Shown: positions 36,001 through 45,000 of the stretch, piece after piece
Numbering within the stretch: the stretch's first letter is position 1
Layout: every line of letters starts with the position of its first letter
Origin: Candidatus Omnitrophota bacterium
GTDB lineage: Bacteria; Omnitrophota; Gorgyraeia; JAFGHF01
Direction of reading: 5' to 3'
Assembly (NCBI GenBank): GCA_043805735.1
Contig: JAZDHS010000020.1
Coordinates: 9,750-73,749, forward strand
DNA length: 64,000 nucleotides
Position numbers: made by a program

Positions 36001-39000
36001 AGGGTCTTTTTGCTTGGCCTGTTTGTGCTGGCCTTGGTGTTACGCTATCTACTCATCATCTATTACTACCACCTCTATTTAAAAACCGGGGCCTTTCCTT
36101 TTCTTGCCCCGGACGGAGAAACGTTGATTAATAAGGGCTGGTATATTTCACAGGTATTGTTGCATCGCGACACCGCGCAAGTGCCTTCTAATGAGTATGT
36201 AATGAAGTTTAACTGGGTTGCCTTGAGCGACTTTGGCGGTAAGCTGCCGCACTGGGATCAGTACCAGGTCGGTATTTACAGCTACTATCTGGGAGTATTT
36301 TTCGCGCTTTTTGGCTATGCGCCTGTGGCGACAAAATGTATCAGCGCGCTCTCGGCAGTAAGTGCTGGCGTGGTCAGTTATTATATCGCCAAAGAGATAT
36401 TCGGCAAAAGCATCGCCCGGGTCAGCTATGTGTTATTGCTCTTTTTCCCTTCAATTTTTATTCATTCGCTGACCAACTTAAGCGATCCCTTCCTGCTTTT
36501 ATTTGGCACCTTGTCAGTATGGTCGCTGGTAAAAATGGCTAAACGGCCGACGCTTTTTTTACTTACGGTTCTGGCGGTTTCGATAACTGCCATTTATTAT
36601 CTTAAGAAACCGCTTGCCCCGCTCATTATTGCCGTCGCTGGGCTGACGTTTTGTAACTTTTTGCGTATGTCGGCGGCAAAAAAGGTCGGTATCGTAATCA
36701 TCTTAATGGCATTAATCATCGGCGTTGGTCCACTAAGAGAAAAACTGGTTGAGACACAGTGGGGTTTGAATAAGCTGATGCTCAGCCACCGCCAGTATAG
36801 CACGCTCAAAGGCGCCAGTTATTTTATTTATCCCCAGCGTTTTTATAATGAGGAGATTCTTTCAGTCGAAGGAATAACCCCGGCGGAAACACTGTTTGCC
36901 CTTTTGAAAGGGCTACTCTACTTTCTTTTTTCGCCGTTTCCTTACAGCGCTTCCTTGTCTGCATTTGGCTTAATTAGTTCTTGGCAGAACATCTTCTGGT
37001 ATTTTCTCTTTCCTTTCAGCCCGATCGGGATTATTGCCGGTCTGCGTCATAATACCAAAAAGATATTGCCGGTCTTTATTCTTCTATTTTTATTTACTTT
37101 TATCCTGGCGCTTTCCGAGGGCCACTCGGCTACGTCCTTTCGCCACCGTGATTTATTGATGCCTGGCTATCTGATTTGCGCTGTCGCCGGTTTTGGCTTG
37201 GCTTTTAAAAAAGGAGGAAATACTCTTGAAAGAAATTAATGTTGCGGTAATCGGATGCGGGTATTGGGGGCCGAATTTAGTGCGTAATTTTCTGGAACAG
37301 GCGGATGCCCGCTTAAAAACAGTCTGTGACCTTTCACCGGAGAGACTCGCCTATGTCAAGCGGCTCTACCCCCCGGTAGTGACGACAACCCAGATGCAAG
37401 ATATCTTTCGCGATAAAGATGTACAGGCGGTAGTCATTGCTACACCGGCGGCCACGCATTTTGACATTGCGATGAACGCCTTAGAGGCCAAAAAACACGT
37501 CCTGATTGAAAAACCCTTAGGGTTAAACCGCCAGGAATGCAAAAAGCTGATTGCCGCGGCCAAAAAACACGAACTGATTCTGATGGTCGGGCACACCTTT
37601 ATCTATAATTCGGCGGTCAGGAAATTAAGGGAATATATCGTTCAGGGATTCATCGGTAAAACTTACTACATCTATTCCCAGCGGCTTAATTTAGGTAAAA
37701 TCCGCCAGGATGTCAATGCCCTCTGGAACTTTGCCCCCCATGATATTTCTATTTTAATTTATCTTTTGAATGAGCTTCCTCACCGTGTGCGGGCTAAGGG
37801 GATGGAATTCATTCAAAAGGGGATCGCCGACGTAGTGATGATGGACCTGGATTTTCCTTCCGGTGTCTCGGCGCATGTCCATGTCAGCTGGCTCGACCCC
37901 AATAAAGTGCGGCGGATGACTGTGGTCGGTAGCGAAAAGATGGTCGTCTACGATGATGTCAACGCCGATGCCAAAATTCAGATTTTCGATAAGGGTATTA
38001 CTAAGAAAAACATCGCCGCCTCACTAGGCGAGTTTAAAAACTTCGGTGAGTTCCAACTGATCCACCGCGCCGGCGACCTGGTTATCCCCAAACTTGATAA
38101 TTATGAACCGCTACAGGAGGAGTGCCGGCATTTTTTGCAATCGATTAGGCAGAACAGCGTGCCCCTTACTGACGGTAAACATGGATTGGCAGTAGTGGAG
38201 ATTTTGGAGAAGGCGCAGGAGTCGATGGATCAGGGTGCACTGCCTGTTGACTTGTAGAAAGAAAGGACCTAACCATGTACCAGGGCAAAAAAATCGCAGT
38301 GGTAATTCCGGCATATAACGAGCAGCGGCTGATTAAGCCGACATTGGAAAATGTCCCTAAGCTTATCGATAAAGTCTATGTAGTTGACGATGCCAGCAGC
38401 GATTCTACGCCAGAGGTGGTTCGGGAAATCGCTCAGCGCGATAACCGCATTGAGCTCATCAGGCACAAGGTGAACCAGGGCCCGGGGCAGGCGATTATTA
38501 ACGGCTATAAGCGCTCTTCCGCGGATGGATATGATATCGCGGTTGTCGTGGGCGGCGATTTTCAGATGCCCTTAGAGCAGGTCACCAATTTCCTCGACCC
38601 TCTAATCAAAGGCAACGCTGATTATGTTAAGGGCAACCGGTTTATGATGGAGGGCAATGCCTTTGAGGATATGCCTAAAATCCGCCTGATCGGCAATACC
38701 ATCATTTCGCTCTTAACTAAGATATCTTCGGGCTGTTATAGGATTTTTGATGTAGTCGACGGATATACCGCAATCACCAAGACTGTCATTGATACGGTAA
38801 ACTGGAATCAGGCCTGGAAGCGCTACGGCTATCCGATGGATTTCTTGGCCCGCATTAACGCCTACGGCTTCCGGATCAAGGATGTTCCCCGCCGAGCGAT
38901 CTATCTGACCGGTGAGCGCCAGACGCAAATTAAGGGCTTGAAGTATGCGTTGAAAGTCTCGCCGATGCTGATCCGCAACTTTTTTTGGCGCTTAAACAAA

Positions 39001-42000: not shown

Positions 42001-45000
42001 TACTATTTTCCCGATTGAGCGCAGTTTCTTCCACGGCAAAATCATCTTGGATGCCGGCTGCGGGCAGGGCCGGTTTTCCTATCTTGCCTCGCGCTATGGC
42101 GCCAAGGAGGTTTACGCCATTGACTTTAGCCATTCGGTGGGAGCAGCCTATCAGAATACCAAAGACTTAAAAAACGTCCACGTGATCCAGGCCGATATTT
42201 ACCATTTACCATTTCGGCGCAAATTCGATTTTATTTTTTCGATCGGGGTGCTGCACCACTTGCCGCATCCGCGGGCCGGCTTCAAAAACTTAATCCGTTA
42301 CCTGGAAAAAGACGGCTCAATTTTTATCTGGGTCTATGGCCAGGGCGCGGTGGTGCGCTTAATCCAGCTGGCCCGGTTACTGACCACCCGTATCCCGCGC
42401 GAGGTCACTTTTGTGCTGGCGCATATCCCGGCCTCGTTTTTGGCGCTGTTCAATATGACCTACGAGCTTCTCGACCGGTTTTCGGGCACGAAAAAACTGG
42501 CGGAGAAAATTCCGCTCAAAGAGTACACCCAGAGATCCTTCCGGGGGAAGGTCAATACCGCTTTTGACCACTTAGCCACACCCCTGGCTGAATTTTACCG
42601 TTACAATGAAATCTATAACTGGTTTAAGGAAGAAAAGTTTAATAATTTTTGGGTTACCGACCGCTTAGGCTATAGCTGGCGGGCCTATGGAAAGAAATAA
42701 AAATGTGCGGTATTTGCGGGATCATCGATAAAGAGAATGTCCTCAAGCCTCAAGGAGAGGCGGTGAGGAAAATGACGGCAACGCTTTTGCACCGTGGCCC
42801 GGATGAGGACGGTTTTTACCTCAAAGGTAACGTGGCCATGGGGATGCGCCGCCTTTCGATTATCGACTTAAAAAGTGGTAGTCAGCCGATGCATAATGAA
42901 GATCAGAGCGTTTGGGTGGTATTTAACGGTTTTATTTATAATTATTTAGAGTTACGCGAACAGCTGATTGCGCGCGGGCACATTTTTTATACCTCTTCGG
43001 ATACCGAGGTGCTGGTGCACTTATATGAGGAATATAAGTTTGACTGTGTAAAACATTTAAACGGGATGTTCGCCTTTGCCATTTGGGACGAAAAAGAAGC
43101 CACGTTTAGCCTCTACCGCGACAGGATCGGCGTAAAAAACATTTTCTATGCCCATATCAACGGTGAATTTGTCTTTGGCTCAGAGATGAAGGCGCTGCTT
43201 ACTTTGCCCCAATTGAGCCGGGAAATTGATTTTCAGGCGCTGGACATCTATTTCTCGCTTTATTATATCCCCGCGCCGTTTACTATTTTTAAACCGATTC
43301 GCCGGCTTGAGCCTGCGCATTACCTGGTATATACACCGAAAAGTCAGCAAGTGCGGGAATATCGCTACTGGGAATTCTCTGCGGGCGGCGAGGACTCCCG
43401 GCCCGAGCGTTATTACGCCGAAAAAATACTGGAGCTTTTGCGCGCCTCGGTGCGCTTACAGCTCAAAAGCGACGTACCGCTGGGATTATTTTTAAGCGGC
43501 GGGATTGATTCGACGACCCTCTTAGCCTTGGTCAGCCAGGAAATACGCACTACCGTCAAGACATTTTCCGTCGGTTTTAAGGAGAAATCCTACAGCGAGT
43601 TGGACCAGGCTCGCTTAGTCGCCAAACTCTATGCCTCCGACCATCATGAAGTCATTATGGAGCCCCAGCAAGTGATTAAACTTTTACCGGATATTATTAC
43701 CCATCTCGATGAGCCAAACGGCGACTGGTCGGCAATACCGAATTATCTGTTATCGCAGTTGGCCAAACAGGAGGTGAGCGTAGCTCTCTGCGGAGCGGGA
43801 GGCGACGAGCTGTTTGCCGGCTACCCCACTTATACCGCCTACTATTTAGCCGGCGCCTATAGAAGGCTGCCCGCTCTTCTGAAAGACACGGTGATTAAAA
43901 ATATCGTTAATCGCCTGCCGGTTTCGCTAAACCGGCTGAGCTTTGATTATAAGGCCAAGGCCTTTATTCGCGCCGCCGATGCTGATCCGATCGAGGCGCA
44001 TTTCCGCTGGAAAGAAATTTTTAGTAAAGAGGCTAAGGCCGAACTTTACTCAGCGCTGGGCAAAGAGAAAATGCGGGATTATGACTCGCTGGAGGTATTC
44101 TCAAGGTATGACTCAGACCTGCAATCGTTCGACGGCTTAAGCAAGCTCCTTTTTCTGGATACGCGGGTCTTTCATGCCGCCTGCACCTTGTATGTAACCG
44201 ATATTACGACCATGGCTAATTCACTGGAATGCCGCGTTCCGTTTTTGGACAACGCCATTATTGATTTTGCCTGGCAGATTCCTTCTCGCCTTAAACATCG
44301 CGGCCTGACCACAAAATACATCCTGCGCCAGGCGGTCAGCCGTCTTCTGCCCAAAGAAATAGTCCGGCTCAAAAAAAAGGGCTTTATCTTACCGACTGGT
44401 TCTTGGCTTAAGGGCCCCTTAAAAGGCTTTATGCAGGAAATCTTATCTAGCGAAAATATCAAAGGCATTAAAGTGCTCAATGAGGCTTATGTGCGCCAGC
44501 TGATTGATGAGCATTTTACGGCCAAGAAAGACAATACCCGTCAATTGACGGCGCTGATATCGTTTGTGCTCTGGTATAATCAGTATATTAATAGGAAATA
44601 GAGGAGATGAGATATGTACTGGGATAAATGGTCGTTTGGTGCTAAGGCCCGAATAGTATTATTCCAAAGCCTCTATACCCCTTTAAAATATCTGCCTTTT
44701 CCTTTAGGCGAATTTTTGCGCTTTGCCTTGTTAAAGCTGTTTCTCAAAAAATTGGGCCGGGGCGGCTGGGTGCGTGACGGCTGCATGATCAGCCACCCGG
44801 AAAATATTGCTATCGGGGATCGAGTGTTTATTAACGAAAATGTCTGTTTAAGCGGTGCCGGGGGGATCGAAATTGGCAATAACGTGGCTATCGGCCACCG
44901 CAGCTCGATTATTTCTGATGACCATGGCTTTGAAAATAAAACCGCCCTGATCGTCGAACAGCAGCGCAAATTAGCCAAGGTTACTATCCAGGACGACGTC

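Follow-up and report, generated by a model that had tools for sequence, protein, structure and literature searches.

A predicted donor-sugar gene set with radical SAM accessories in a large glycan locus of a Candidatus Omnitrophota bacterium

Organization of the locus

The window analysed here is a 64,000-nucleotide stretch of a Candidatus Omnitrophota MAG (GenBank assembly GCA_043805735.1, contig JAZDHS010000020.1, positions 9,750 to 73,749 of the forward strand). It carries a single-strand glycan locus of at least 44 kb and 40 genes, within which five ORFs, encoding GT2A, rSAM323, B12A, a Trm112-methyltransferase and an AsnB-family amidotransferase, form a slice (Table 1). All five are present on the plus strand where the preliminary description had placed them, and Pfam confirmed the domain calls for each; only the SPASM label of the 323-residue radical SAM protein needs qualifying, as it has no match to the Pfam SPASM model. 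The view of the five genes as a discrete cassette could not be maintained. They are spaced by -1, 9, -4, and 2 nt in order, but a GFO gene lies 17 nt upstream and an acetyltransferase gene 12 nt downstream, an equally tight linkage, within a 40-gene run (19386 to 63559) in which gaps are 45 nt or less throughout and no intergenic terminator was found. The boundaries of the set are therefore arbitrary.

Table 1. Genes of the locus discussed in the text, in positions of the window
Feature	Position	Strand	Description
UDP-GlcNAc/ManNAc 6-dehydrogenase-like enzyme	13367..14677	+	Would supply uronic acid
DegT aminotransferase	20040-21152	+	Part of Wbp-like amino-sugar set
Second GFO/IDH/MocA	21171-22220	+	Part of Wbp-like amino-sugar set
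8-TM ORF	22217-23920	+	Without Pfam match; inside Wbp-like amino-sugar set (20040..24543)
Hexapeptide, N-acetyltransferase type (Hex1)	23947-24543	+	Part of Wbp-like amino-sugar set
Non-hydrolysing UDP-GlcNAc 2-epimerase	29160..30293	+	Above wecB cut-off
Second GT2	31928..32713	+	261 aa, without TM hairpin; lies just before the GT-C genes; weak PpgS/PgaC similarity
PMT_2 (ArnT/PMT-like GT-C), three in tandem	32713-34224, 34211-35836, 35833-37239	+	PF13231, PF02366
GFO/IDH/MocA oxidoreductase (GFO2)	37193..38257	+	UDP-GlcNAc(A) 3-dehydrogenase-like; Pfam
GT2 (GT2A)	38275..39219	+	314 aa; PF00535; predicted polyprenyl-phosphate glycosyltransferase, C-terminal TM hairpin
rSAM323	39219..40190	+	323 aa; Radical_SAM with CX3CX2C; twitch-like, rare family
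B12A	40200..41636	+	478 aa; PF02310 + PF04055; C-terminal hydrophobic tail
Trm112-methyltransferase	41633..42700	+	355 aa; PF03966 + PF08241 and related models
AsnB-family glutamine amidotransferase, WbpS-like	42703..44601	+	632 aa; PF00733, PF13537, PF13522
Hexapeptide-repeat acetyltransferase	44614..45147	+	WcaF/LacA O-acetyltransferase type
Second module copy: MOP/MATE-like flippase	57621-59120	+	
Second module copy: AsnB	59129-61120	+	
Second module copy: B12-rSAM	61113-62561	+	Another subfamily
Second module copy: GT2 (GT2B)	62579-63559	+	

Both GFO proteins are nearest to UDP-GlcNAc 3-dehydrogenase in NCBIfam; GFO2 matches NF040723 at 169 bits, below the cut-off, its PDB matches are generic, and WbpB/WlbA homologs score low. 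UDP-sugar 6-dehydrogenases and a wecB-type epimerase are both encoded in the locus, and the DegT and Hex1 proteins are of the types found beside GT2A in other genomes. The acetyltransferase encoded downstream of AsnB is of the type listed and is not WbpD-like. The three PMT_2 proteins, with 8–9 hydrophobic segments each, are the predicted users of a lipid-linked donor, and no GtrA-type flippase is present at the locus. The window also contains a second module copy (57621..63559), with identities of 42% over the full length between GT2A and GT2B, 37% between the AsnBs, and 26% between the B12-rSAMs.

Relationships of the five proteins

GT2A belongs to a tightly conserved family (314–318 residues, more than 120 clusters at 59–70% identity) that spans phyla and shares the invariant motifs GGD-x-QM, DY-x-KGNR, and DFHP. 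Its nearest solved relatives by sequence in a PDB search are DPMS (5mlz, 1.2e-14) and ArnC, and a Foldseek search with the AF2 model (pLDDT 89.2) returned ArnC, DPMS, or GtrB as all of the best 14 matches, over the full length and including the juxtamembrane and TM helices. The TM segments (260–278 and 289–307) form a C-terminal hairpin, matching GtrB and ArnC in size and topology. By modelled fold and topology, GT2A is predicted to be of the polyprenyl-phosphate-sugar synthase type, in agreement with its initial assignment. It differs from DPMS and ArnC in the D-A-D-L-Q motif, of which the first Asp is replaced by Gly in the GT2A family, and its best NCBIfam match, AglJ, reaches 95 bits against a cut-off of 325. 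Members of the families discussed here carry only generic names in the sources.

The rSAM323 family retains only C251-x12-G-x4-C269 and C297 (close orthologs add C295/C301), so that we regard the protein as twitch-like or as an abridged SPASM form. BlsE, whose substrate ring is a glucuronic acid, is the closest structure by two methods, whereas sequence profiles place the peptide maturases CteB, SkfB, and PqqE (1e-30 to 1e-26) nearer. The NCBIfam matches include the StsB, mycofactocin, and PqqE models, none at its curated cut-off; GDGT-MAS and Tes are also among the matches of rSAM323. B12A matches BchE, HpnJ, and ApyD at about 160 bits (HpnJ 161.6), rSAM_ladder_B12 at 119.9 bits, and HpnR at 113.2 bits; the first three are far under their cut-offs and the lipid-enzyme families score 3–4 fold below theirs. 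The best PDB match is AprD4, over the radical SAM domain only, followed by MgmA (9ccb), OxsB, TokK, and CysS. The nearest characterised relatives, all far below family cut-offs, include AprD4 (a sugar diol-dehydratase), HpnJ (a putative ring-contracting enzyme), BchE (a cyclase), and methylases. The C-methylation or epimerisation suggested for B12A in the preliminary description is at most a candidate activity. B12A has orthologs, at 45–57% identity, in Elusimicrobiota, Nitrospirota, Thermodesulfobacteriota, and other groups, and a C-terminal hydrophobic segment is found in 20 of 22 family members.

The methyltransferase combines a Trm112p zinc ribbon (Trm112_arch, 50.8 bits) and a class I SAM methyltransferase domain in one protein. 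It has homologs in loci L173 (221 bits) and L005, the latter 27% identical from end to end, Zn ribbon included. AsnB has GATase and Asn_synthase domains with both the N-terminal MCGICG and the PP-loop SGGIDS. Its best match is TIGR03108 (556.6 bits, under the 816.9 cut-off), a family that includes WbpS and WbqG, both shown by published genetics to be needed for making uronamide on Wbp-pathway sugars; by this analogy, and as first suggested from its likeness to WbpS, AsnB is predicted to form a uronamide. Hydrophobic-segment prediction found no membrane segment in rSAM323, AsnB, or the methyltransferase, so that these three could act on soluble UDP-sugars.

Recurrence in other genomes

The census covered 15 GT2A-ortholog loci with enough flanking sequence, compared with 28 loci of the sister GT2B clade. 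A GFO, DegT, or Hex gene lies within 6 kb of the GT2A ortholog in 11 of the 15 and also in every long-contig context examined. GFO2 is the most conserved neighbour, with orthologs (337–426 bits) adjoining GT2A in L001, L088-L091, L095, L096, L172, and L173. AsnB is near GT2A in 7/15 loci versus 3/28 for the GT2B clade (p=0.02), and a B12-rSAM in 5/15 versus 2/28 (p=0.04). AsnB genes adjoin GT2A orthologs in L001, L005, L088, L171, L172, and L173. The full set of five is rare (rSAM323 in none and Trm112-methyltransferase in one of the 15). One contig, L173, carries all five component types (AsnB, Trm112-MT, B12-rSAM, GT2A, and rSAM323), together with GFO, Hex, and PMT_2. Gene order is shuffled, being GT2-AsnB-B12 in L171 and MT-B12-GT2-rSAM323 in L173. 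Co-occurrence is real and extends across phyla, but the conserved unit is not the five genes: its core is GT2, GFO/DegT/hexapeptide, and AsnB, to which the two radical SAM enzymes and the methyltransferase are optional accessories. The preliminary description had named three findings that would count against it (radical SAM enzymes from well-characterised non-glycan families, a GT2 without polyprenyl-phosphate-sugar synthase features, and no co-occurrence), and none of them was found.

In five loci (L001, L002, L005, L172, and L173) PMT_2 genes lie beside the module. B12A orthologs sit directly between a preceding TM-hairpin GT2 and a following PMT_2 in the first three, and in the last two rSAM323 orthologs overlap the stop of GT2A and the start of PMT_2, so that either radical SAM type can fill this slot. 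This recurring order of GT2, radical SAM, and PMT_2 supports the earlier suggestion that the product is handed to GT-C enzymes. Within the census a GT-C was detected near GT2A in 3/15 loci by an insensitive method, and in L088 and L089 none was seen up to 8 kb away from GT2A; GT4 genes often follow GT2A (7/15).

Proposed pathway and alternatives

Our preferred reading places the five genes at the centre of a branch for making a donor sugar, inside a giant LPS- or EPS-type locus. We propose, with about even confidence, a donor pathway for three-component-type periplasmic glycosylation with radical SAM tailoring. UDP-GlcNAc would undergo C6 oxidation, C3 oxidation by GFO, transamination by DegT, and N-acetylation to UDP-2,3-diacetamido-2,3-dideoxy-hexuronic acid, a sugar identity proposed from the association with GFO/DegT/Hex, 6-dehydrogenase, and epimerase genes. 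GT2A probably attaches such an amino-uronic sugar to a lipid carrier, which would be undecaprenyl phosphate at the cytoplasmic face, and AsnB would convert the C6 carboxylate to a carboxamide. The twitch radical SAM enzyme, the presumably membrane-tethered B12-rSAM, and the Trm112-methyltransferase may introduce modifications that differ between lineages, probably on the lipid-linked sugar; C-methylation, deoxygenation through dehydration, and O/N-methylation are candidates. A MOP-family flippase would export the donor, and the three tandem PMT_2 GT-Cs would attach it to a periplasmic acceptor, be it O-polysaccharide, core or lipid A, or protein. There are precedents: RgtE makes a bactoprenyl-P-GalA donor for GT-C transferases, and a lipid-linked aminosugar is handled first by the GT2 HpnI and then by the putative radical SAM enzyme HpnJ. 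Points that speak against the proposed pathway are the Gly in place of the first Asp in GT2A, the few GT-C genes detected near GT2A orthologs, the lack of a GtrA-type flippase, the generic PDB matches of GFO2, the three enzymes with no membrane segment, the closeness of rSAM323 to peptide maturases by sequence profile, and the rarity of the full set.

The stage at which tailoring takes place is where a competing reading carries some weight. The pathway and sugar may be the same, with AsnB, both radical SAM enzymes, and the methyltransferase all acting on the soluble UDP-sugar before GT2 transfer and gene order reflecting co-expression only; this we consider possible but doubtful. Three of the four enzymes lack a hydrophobic segment, characterised sugar-modifying radical SAM enzymes (BlsE, AprD4, and DesII among them) take soluble substrates of nucleoside or aminoglycoside type, WbpS could act early or late in the Wbp pathway, and order varies between loci (L171 versus L173). 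We favour tailoring at the lipid-linked stage because the C-terminal hydrophobic tail is conserved in the B12A family; radical SAM genes also lie repeatedly between GT2 and GT-C, the stop codon of one gene overlapping the start codon of the next, and three-component systems have auxiliary enzymes, such as DprE1/E2 and ORF13, whose substrates are sugars linked to undP or decP.

Archaeal AglC-type enzymes are GT2s that add a sugar onto a lipid-linked oligosaccharide or another acceptor. GT2A could likewise be a membrane-anchored GT2 adding the diacetamido-uronic sugar to a growing lipid-linked oligosaccharide or other acceptor, with the GT-C genes an unrelated branch, as its AglJ match, the unconserved first Asp of the DXD, the frequent GT4 neighbours, and the lack of nearby GT-C genes in L088 and L089 might indicate. 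This is unlikely, given that the top structural matches are all polyprenyl-P glycosyltransferases, aligned from end to end with the TM region included, and given the GtrB/ArnC size and topology and the adjoining GT-C in several independent loci.

It is very unlikely that the B12-rSAM, and possibly rSAM323, instead modifies a lipid (polyprenyl carrier, membrane lipid, or glycolipid head group) in the manner of HpnJ, HpnR, and the ladderane and GDGT enzymes. HpnJ, rSAM_ladder_B12, and HpnR are among the better B12A matches and GDGT-MAS and Tes among those of rSAM323, the B12A tail would suit such a target, and HpnI, HpnK, and HpnJ provide a precedent of GT2 plus radical SAM on lipid-linked GlcN; against this stand the scores, every one 3–4 fold under its family cut-off, and neighbourhoods that are glycan loci with many sugar-nucleotide enzymes and glycosyltransferases and no lipid-synthesis genes. 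That the two radical SAM enzymes are peptide or cofactor maturases merely beside glycan genes, as the CteB, SkfB, PqqE, StsB, mycofactocin, and ApyD similarities could imply, is highly improbable and largely refuted by synteny, since both families recur specifically beside GT2A, AsnB, and PMT_2 in different phyla and both genes here lie within the tightly spaced run. No match reaches a curated cut-off, and neither RiPP precursor nor protease, transporter, or cofactor genes lie nearby.

The preliminary description saw no obvious parallel in classical O-antigen loci, which does not apply to the GFO/IDH/MocA, DegT, hexapeptide, and WbpS-type AsnB genes, as these match the Wbp/WbpS pathway and its 2,3-diamino-uronic-acid chemistry. 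The core of GT2A, GFO, DegT, hexapeptide, and AsnB is already known in kind, and the radical SAM and methyltransferase accessories are the new element. Recurrence of this arrangement in other uncultivated anaerobes points to a hitherto undescribed route for decorating sugars of this kind.

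Gene content and layout of the locus

The window holds a very large glycan locus in which all genes lie on a single strand. The window stems from a Candidatus Omnitrophota MAG, three database proteins (P0001, P0121 and P0241) on a 104,521-bp NCBI contig being 100% identical to window proteins. Within the locus, 40 successive genes, none separated by more than 45 nt, form an unusually long operon-like run of ~44 kb. Many neighbours in the run overlap by 1, 4 or 8 nt, and at least nine of its genes encode SAM methyltransferases. No terminator-like sites were found between genes at 31–47 kb, and no tRNA or Rfam elements were found in the window.

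The preliminary description had set apart five of these genes as a cassette without obvious parallel in classical O-antigen or capsule loci. Their positions were reproduced exactly, all on the + strand, but the cassette boundaries were not: the 40-gene run encloses all five, with 17 nt between the stop of the upstream GFO/IDH/MocA (GFO) oxidoreductase gene and the GT2 start, and 12 nt between the AsnB end and the start of the downstream acetyltransferase gene.

Coordinates of the features discussed, in window positions
Feature	Position	Strand	Content and evidence
Regulatory and outer-membrane genes	4680–9643		Two GGDEF diguanylate cyclases (one with GAF), LptD-like outer-membrane protein
Carbamoyltransferase and 3-TM ORF	16795–19028		NodU/SxtI-like, 605 aa, then the SxtJ ORF
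SxtJ ORF	18621–19028		135 aa, Pfam SxtJ
Operon-like run	19386–63559		40 same-strand genes
Hydrophobic ORF	22217–23920		567 aa, 8 hydrophobic segments
PMT_2 genes	32713–37239		Three tandem ArnT/PMT-like GT-C membrane proteins
GT2	38275–39219	+	GT2A family; Pfam/NCBIfam
rSAM323	39219–40190	+	Radical SAM; Pfam/NCBIfam
B12-rSAM	40200–41636	+	B12-binding + radical SAM; PF02310, PF04055
Trm112-MT	41633–42700	+	Trm112-type zinc ribbon fused to class I methyltransferase; Pfam/NCBIfam
AsnB	42703–44601	+	Glutamine amidotransferase, N-terminal Cys and PP-loop; Pfam/NCBIfam
Hexapeptide acyltransferase	44614–45147		WcaF/LacA O-acetyltransferase type
Transglutaminase-like protein	48444–49196		
FemAB-family protein	52746–53810		Weak match to PEP-CTERM-associated FemAB model
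Kinase-like/GNAT fusion	54669–55976		435 aa
Second module	57621–63559		MATE/Wzx-like flippase, then AsnB (663 aa), B12-rSAM (482 aa), GT2B-type GT2 (326 aa)

Sugar-nucleotide functions are represented by two UDP-sugar 6-dehydrogenases, several SDR epimerases/dehydratases, RmlD, a wecB-type 2-epimerase, a DegT aminotransferase and two GFO enzymes, each nearest to UDP-GlcNAc 3-dehydrogenase, alongside a carbamoyltransferase, three hexapeptide acyltransferases and many SAM methyltransferases. GT4 and GT2 glycosyltransferases accompany the tandem GT-C proteins, as do two MOP-family Wzx/MATE-like flippases, one of which is encoded just ahead of the second module. A search of the window for a small membrane ORF of GtrA type found none, the sole small 3-TM ORF being SxtJ-like. 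The hexapeptide gene downstream of AsnB was considered as WbpD-like and rejected on its type. Likewise, the GFO adjoining GT2 is not a clear WbpB/WlbA: its PDB matches are generic, and its best NCBIfam match, an archaeal UDP-GlcNAc 3-dehydrogenase, falls below the cut-off.

The second module repeats part of the five-gene set. Identity between the two copies is 42% for the GT2s (full length), 37% for the AsnBs and 26% for the B12-rSAMs, and the second GT2 shares the TM hairpin and the GD-x-QM motif with the first. It belongs to a sister clade (GT2B) whose relatives were commoner than the GT2A type in the metagenome scan (62 vs 23 loci).

Several further genes accompany these functions. The pairing of SxtI and SxtJ is known from saxitoxin clusters; the SxtI–SxtJ-type pair here sits in a glycan locus, and one of the compared loci (L005) also has carbamoyltransferases. 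The hydrophobic ORF lies between a GFO and a hexapeptide acetyltransferase gene and has no match in Pfam or NCBIfam; candidate functions for its product are those of a Wzy-type polymerase and of a further GT-C or ligase. VimA of the Wbp/Vim pathway puts an amino acid on the C-2 amine of a diamino-uronic sugar (PMC7468200), and by analogy the FemAB-family protein could play a similar role, giving an aminoacylated sugar. The fusion of a protein-kinase-like domain with a GNAT acetyltransferase domain is unusual in a glycan locus, and so are the two proteins encoded after it, one a thymidylate-kinase-like P-loop protein, the other an NTP_transf_5 nucleotidyltransferase. The GGDEF and LptD-like genes stand directly upstream of the sugar-nucleotide genes, and GGDEF and histidine-kinase genes adjoin the module in L171 as well.

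Properties of the encoded enzymes

The GT2 matches GtrB, dolichol-phosphate-mannose synthase (DPMS) and ArnC in fold, size and C-terminal TM hairpin, in agreement with its earlier assignment to the polyprenyl-phosphate-sugar synthases. In sequence, the solved proteins nearest to it are Pyrococcus DPMS and ArnC. In a Foldseek search with a high-confidence AF2 model (pLDDT 89.2), ranks 1–14 were all ArnC, DPMS or GtrB, with alignments of 309–327 columns spanning the whole length; ArnC was the top match at a sequence identity of ~22%. The GT2A family comprises >120 clusters, 59–70% identical and every one 314–318 aa long, from Omnitrophota, KSB1, Deltaproteobacteria and others; its members are annotated with generic names only, and its homologs number more than 3800. 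Both C-terminal hydrophobic segments (residues 260–278 and 289–307) are kept across the family, in which the motifs GGD-x-QM, DY-x-KGNR, D-x3-G-x-TA and DFHP are invariant. The D-x-D motif for metal and nucleotide-sugar binding (DAD-L-Q in DPMS/ArnC) aligns with GGD-x-QM, the second Asp and the Gln being kept and the first Asp replaced by Gly, the single feature of this enzyme type that the family does not clearly show. From fold and topology, the enzyme is predicted to load one sugar from an NDP-sugar onto polyprenyl phosphate.

AsnB carries PF13537 and PF00733 domains with MCGICG and LSGGIDS in its sequence. It passes the generic TIGR01536 model, and its best model is TIGR03108 (eps_aminotran_1), which it matches over residues 1–621 at 556.6 bits, below the 816.9 cut-off. 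WbpS and WbqG are members of TIGR03108 (PMC7468200), and WbpS of Porphyromonas gingivalis (PGN_1234) is needed for the uronamide form of the Wbp-pathway 2,3-diamino-glucuronic acid, its position within the pathway being unknown (Veith et al. 2020, PMC7468200). Given this best model and the WbpS/WbqG genetics, the proposal that AsnB forms a uronamide is well founded, and this part of the locus does have a parallel in classical O-antigen chemistry. Both in the window and in other loci, AsnB is associated with genes for uronic-acid (Wbp-type) sugars.

Neither radical SAM protein reaches a curated NCBIfam cut-off. The B12-rSAM has B12-binding (PF02310, 65.7 bits) and radical SAM (PF04055, 95.5 bits) domains and an invariant CX3CX2C motif (C208, C212, C215). 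Its best NCBIfam matches, at ~160 bits, are BchE (162.4 vs a cut-off of 481), HpnJ, which ranks second, and ApyD; AprD4 scores 132 vs 500. At 161.6 bits against a cut-off of 577.6 it is not an HpnJ ortholog. The best solved relative is AprD4, over the radical SAM domain only, followed by MgmA, OxsB, TokK and CysS. AprD4 is a sugar 1,2-diol dehydratase of the apramycin pathway and not a methylase, so that the function of the B12-rSAM cannot be read from its fold. In 20/22 family members a C-terminal hydrophobic segment is followed by basic residues, a sequence pattern that suggests membrane tethering; three of the five proteins of the set have no membrane feature. Some family members (P0089, P0092, P0094 and P0110; 641–668 aa) are fused to pentapeptide repeats (PF00805, PF13599, PF13576).

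The second radical SAM protein, rSAM323, had been described as a SPASM or SPASM/twitch enzyme. All domain calls were backed by Pfam and NCBIfam, the radical SAM domain of rSAM323 among them; PF13186, the Pfam SPASM model, found no match in it, and only 3–5 C-terminal Cys are conserved vs the seven-Cys SPASM motif, which makes rSAM323 twitch-like and not full SPASM. In the stretch behind the radical SAM core, where SPASM/twitch enzymes have their Cys-rich auxiliary-cluster domain, the family never varies C251-x12-G264-x4-C269 and C297, and close orthologs add C295/C301. Structure comparison places rSAM323 nearest to enzymes of the twitch/SPASM class, namely BlsE, SkfB, SuiB, anSME and PqqE. BlsE, which acts on a glucuronic-acid ring, is the closest structure over the full length, at 16–18% identity; with the family profile it is matched over the radical SAM core only, and CteB, SkfB and PqqE rank above it.

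Genomic neighbourhoods of the module

A genome scan seeded with the B12-rSAM returned mostly distant paralogs (30–35% identity, ~200 bits), and loci of at least ~380 bits were taken as orthologs. A homology search showed orthologs at 45–57% identity in Elusimicrobiota, Nitrospirota, Thermodesulfobacteriota, Omnitrophota and Sedimentisphaerales. In three loci (L001, L002, L005) the gene order is GT2 (with the C-terminal TM hairpin), B12-rSAM ortholog and PMT_2, with nothing in between, and AsnB lies near the ortholog in six (L001, L002, L004, L005, L008, L014).

The GT2-seeded census covered a metagenome scan of 80 loci and three long contigs, and gene families were counted within 6 kb of the 15 GT2A-type orthologs that had at least 6 kb of flank. 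GFO, DegT or hexapeptide acyltransferase genes were present at 11/15 loci, AsnB at seven, a B12-rSAM at five, Trm112-MT at one and rSAM323 at none. Both AsnB (7/15 vs 3/28, p=0.02) and the B12-rSAM (5/15 vs 2/28, p=0.04) were enriched near GT2A relative to the GT2B clade. GT-C genes were counted at 3/15 loci, a lower bound because phmmer with the window PMT_2 proteins was too insensitive, recovering one of the five Pfam-annotated PMT_2 genes in L001; none were seen within 8 kb of GT2A in L088 and L089.

Taken alone, the counts for rSAM323 and Trm112-MT would make the five-gene set unique to the window, a view overturned by the search seeded with rSAM323. This family is rare, with only ~12 clusters at ≥40% identity, and all three contexts examined showed the same module. 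The order in L171 is hexapeptide acyltransferase, DegT, GT2A, AsnB, B12A ortholog, an 8-TM protein, rSAM323 and GFO. L172 has two B12-rSAMs, hexapeptide acyltransferase, DegT, AsnB, GFO, GT2A and rSAM323, with PMT_2 onward, and L173 has AsnB, GFO, hexapeptide acyltransferase, Trm112-MT, B12-rSAM, GT2A and rSAM323, again with PMT_2 onward. GT2, B12-rSAM and AsnB recur together outside the window, as these three loci illustrate, and PMT_2 adjoins the module in the window, L001, L002, L005, L172 and L173. From the three seeds together, the conserved core is GT2A with GFO/DegT/hexapeptide acyltransferase and AsnB. The radical SAM proteins and the methyltransferase are accessories that recur together, and the slot between GT2 and GT-C can be filled by either radical SAM type.

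Other arrangements were observed in the compared loci. Three to five paralogous B12-rSAM genes lie within ~10 kb in L022, L029, L033, L035, L037 and L154; such arrays, in which GT2 genes are often interspersed, are seen in CPR (Portnoybacteria, Saccharibacteria), in Bathyarchaeia and in further uncultivated groups, and L002 repeats a GT2 + B12-rSAM unit three times. A flavin amine-oxidase-like gene (PF01593/PF13450, ~430–470 aa), absent from the window, sits at the module edge in L001, L005, L172 and L173, and is accompanied in several loci by a WecA/MraY-type Glycos_transf_4 gene. LPG_synthase_TM (PF03706) membrane proteins adjoin the GT2 + B12-rSAM pair in L090 (11927–12886) and L006 (13334–15361); in loci without MOP flippases, they might serve to flip the lipid-linked donor.

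Proposed pathway and relation to known systems

We infer a donor pathway of the three-component type, built on Wbp/WbpS-type chemistry with radical SAM tailoring enzymes attached. A 6-dehydrogenase, GFO, DegT and acetyltransferase would make a UDP-2,3-diacetamido-2,3-dideoxy-hexuronic acid, from which the GT2 would transfer the sugar to undecaprenyl phosphate (Und-P). AsnB would amidate C6, and the radical SAM enzymes and methyltransferase would supply variable decorations, after which a MOP flippase would carry the donor across the membrane and the PMT_2 GT-C enzymes would join the sugar to a periplasmic acceptor. The diacetamido-uronic identity of the sugar is proposed by guilt by association with the neighbouring genes. 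The tailoring-line reading of the preliminary description stands in part: the ORFs and domains are as described, and the GT2 type, the basis for a uronamide and the co-occurrence support it, but the five genes are not a discrete cassette. A more specific reading, which we find possible and somewhat doubtful, is that the twitch and membrane-tethered B12 radical SAM enzymes act directly on the Und-P-linked 2,3-diacetamido-uronic sugar, which is then flipped and used by the GT-Cs. Candidate reactions for such direct chemistry at the cytoplasmic face are C-methylation, deoxygenation and rearrangement of the ring.

One close comparison is with the GtrA/GtrB/Gtr* and Citrobacter youngae systems, which share a scheme of a cytoplasmic synthase that puts one sugar on polyprenyl phosphate, a flippase and one or more GT-Cs. 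C. youngae O1/O2 uses polyprenyl-phosphate-ribofuranose with an auxiliary epimerase, and auxiliary enzymes of three-component systems (ORF13, DprE1/E2) act on undP- or decP-linked sugars (PMC11127046). Like these, the window has a GT2 of GtrB fold and topology and adjacent GT-C genes; its flippases are of MOP/MATE type with none of GtrA type, and its GT-Cs are three in tandem. In place of Glc or a pentofuranose, a diamino-uronic acid or uronamide is predicted as its sugar, and the auxiliary enzymes comprise two radical SAM proteins together with a methyltransferase and an amidotransferase. Within the literature covered, which leaves out most subscription journals and so offers weak evidence, no radical SAM protein was found in a polyprenyl-phosphate-sugar and GT-C system, nor such methyltransferase or amidotransferase auxiliaries for three-component systems.

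In the Arn and Rgt systems, an ArnC/RgtE-type GT2 makes Und-P-L-Ara4FN or bactoprenyl-P-GalA, and ArnT/Rgt GT-Cs transfer the sugar to lipid A or core. ArnD may tailor the lipid-linked sugar of the Arn pathway. Radical SAM tailoring is absent from both systems, and the window GT2 differs from ArnC in its identity of ~22% and its DAD to GGD change. By supplying GT-C transferases with bactoprenyl-P-GalA (PMC7663294), RgtE sets a precedent for a lipid donor that carries a uronic acid.

Wbp/WbpS systems (WbpA/B/E/D/I with the amidotransferase WbpS/WbqG/PGN_1234) have in common with the window the 6-dehydrogenase, GFO-type 3-dehydrogenase, DegT, hexapeptide N-acetyltransferase, 2-epimerase and TIGR03108-type AsnB, and all these enzyme types occur both in the window and beside GT2A orthologs, with the differences that the window AsnB is below the TIGR03108 cut-off and the GFO beside the GT2 is no clear WbpB-type enzyme. 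In Wbp systems, cytoplasmic glycosyltransferases incorporate the sugar on Und-PP, whereas the window pathway has a GtrB-like GT2 and GT-Cs attached.

For radical SAM action on a lipid-linked sugar, the HpnI/HpnK/HpnJ system is a precedent: a GT2 and then a putative radical SAM enzyme act on a lipid-linked aminosugar, the GT2 adding N-acetyl-hexosamine to the lipid and the B12-binding-type HpnJ remodelling the aminosugar of the hopanoid cyclitol ether, a chemistry inferred from deletion phenotypes only (PMC13459092). The window locus has no hopanoid genes. BlsE (blasticidin S), AprD4 (apramycin) and DesII also act on sugar rings, but their substrates are soluble intermediates of antibiotic biosynthesis and not precursors of an envelope glycan. 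Class B radical SAM methyltransferases (TokK, MgmA, CysS, TsrM, GenK-type) share the B12-binding and radical SAM domains with the B12-rSAM, which differs in having no curated cut-off match and a family-specific C-terminal hydrophobic tail.

Uncultivated anaerobic bacteria and archaea carry hugely expanded sets of B12-binding radical SAM genes, nearly all of which are, to our knowledge, without assigned function. The locus and its relatives tie one conserved B12-rSAM subfamily and a rare twitch radical SAM family to a specific, experimentally tractable context: a GtrB/ArnC-like synthase, Wbp-type amino-uronic-acid enzymes, a WbpS-type amidotransferase and ArnT/PMT-like GT-Cs. The 314–318-aa GT2 family is a useful metagenome marker for predicting diamino-uronic-acid side-branch glycosylation. 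If the radical SAM enzymes act on the sugar, they would add to the known chemistry of glycans on bacterial surfaces and form a new class of auxiliary enzymes for three-component glycosylation, and many "radical SAM protein" annotations would gain a testable functional hypothesis. With direct action on the Und-P-sugar, if true, three-component glycosylation would gain its first tailoring step by a radical SAM enzyme. Omnitrophota, Elusimicrobiota, Nitrospirota and Desulfobacterota would then be expected to display branched or deoxy amino-uronamide sugars without precedent on their surfaces, and the paralogous B12-rSAM arrays in loci of CPR, DPANN and Bathyarchaeia would have similar roles.
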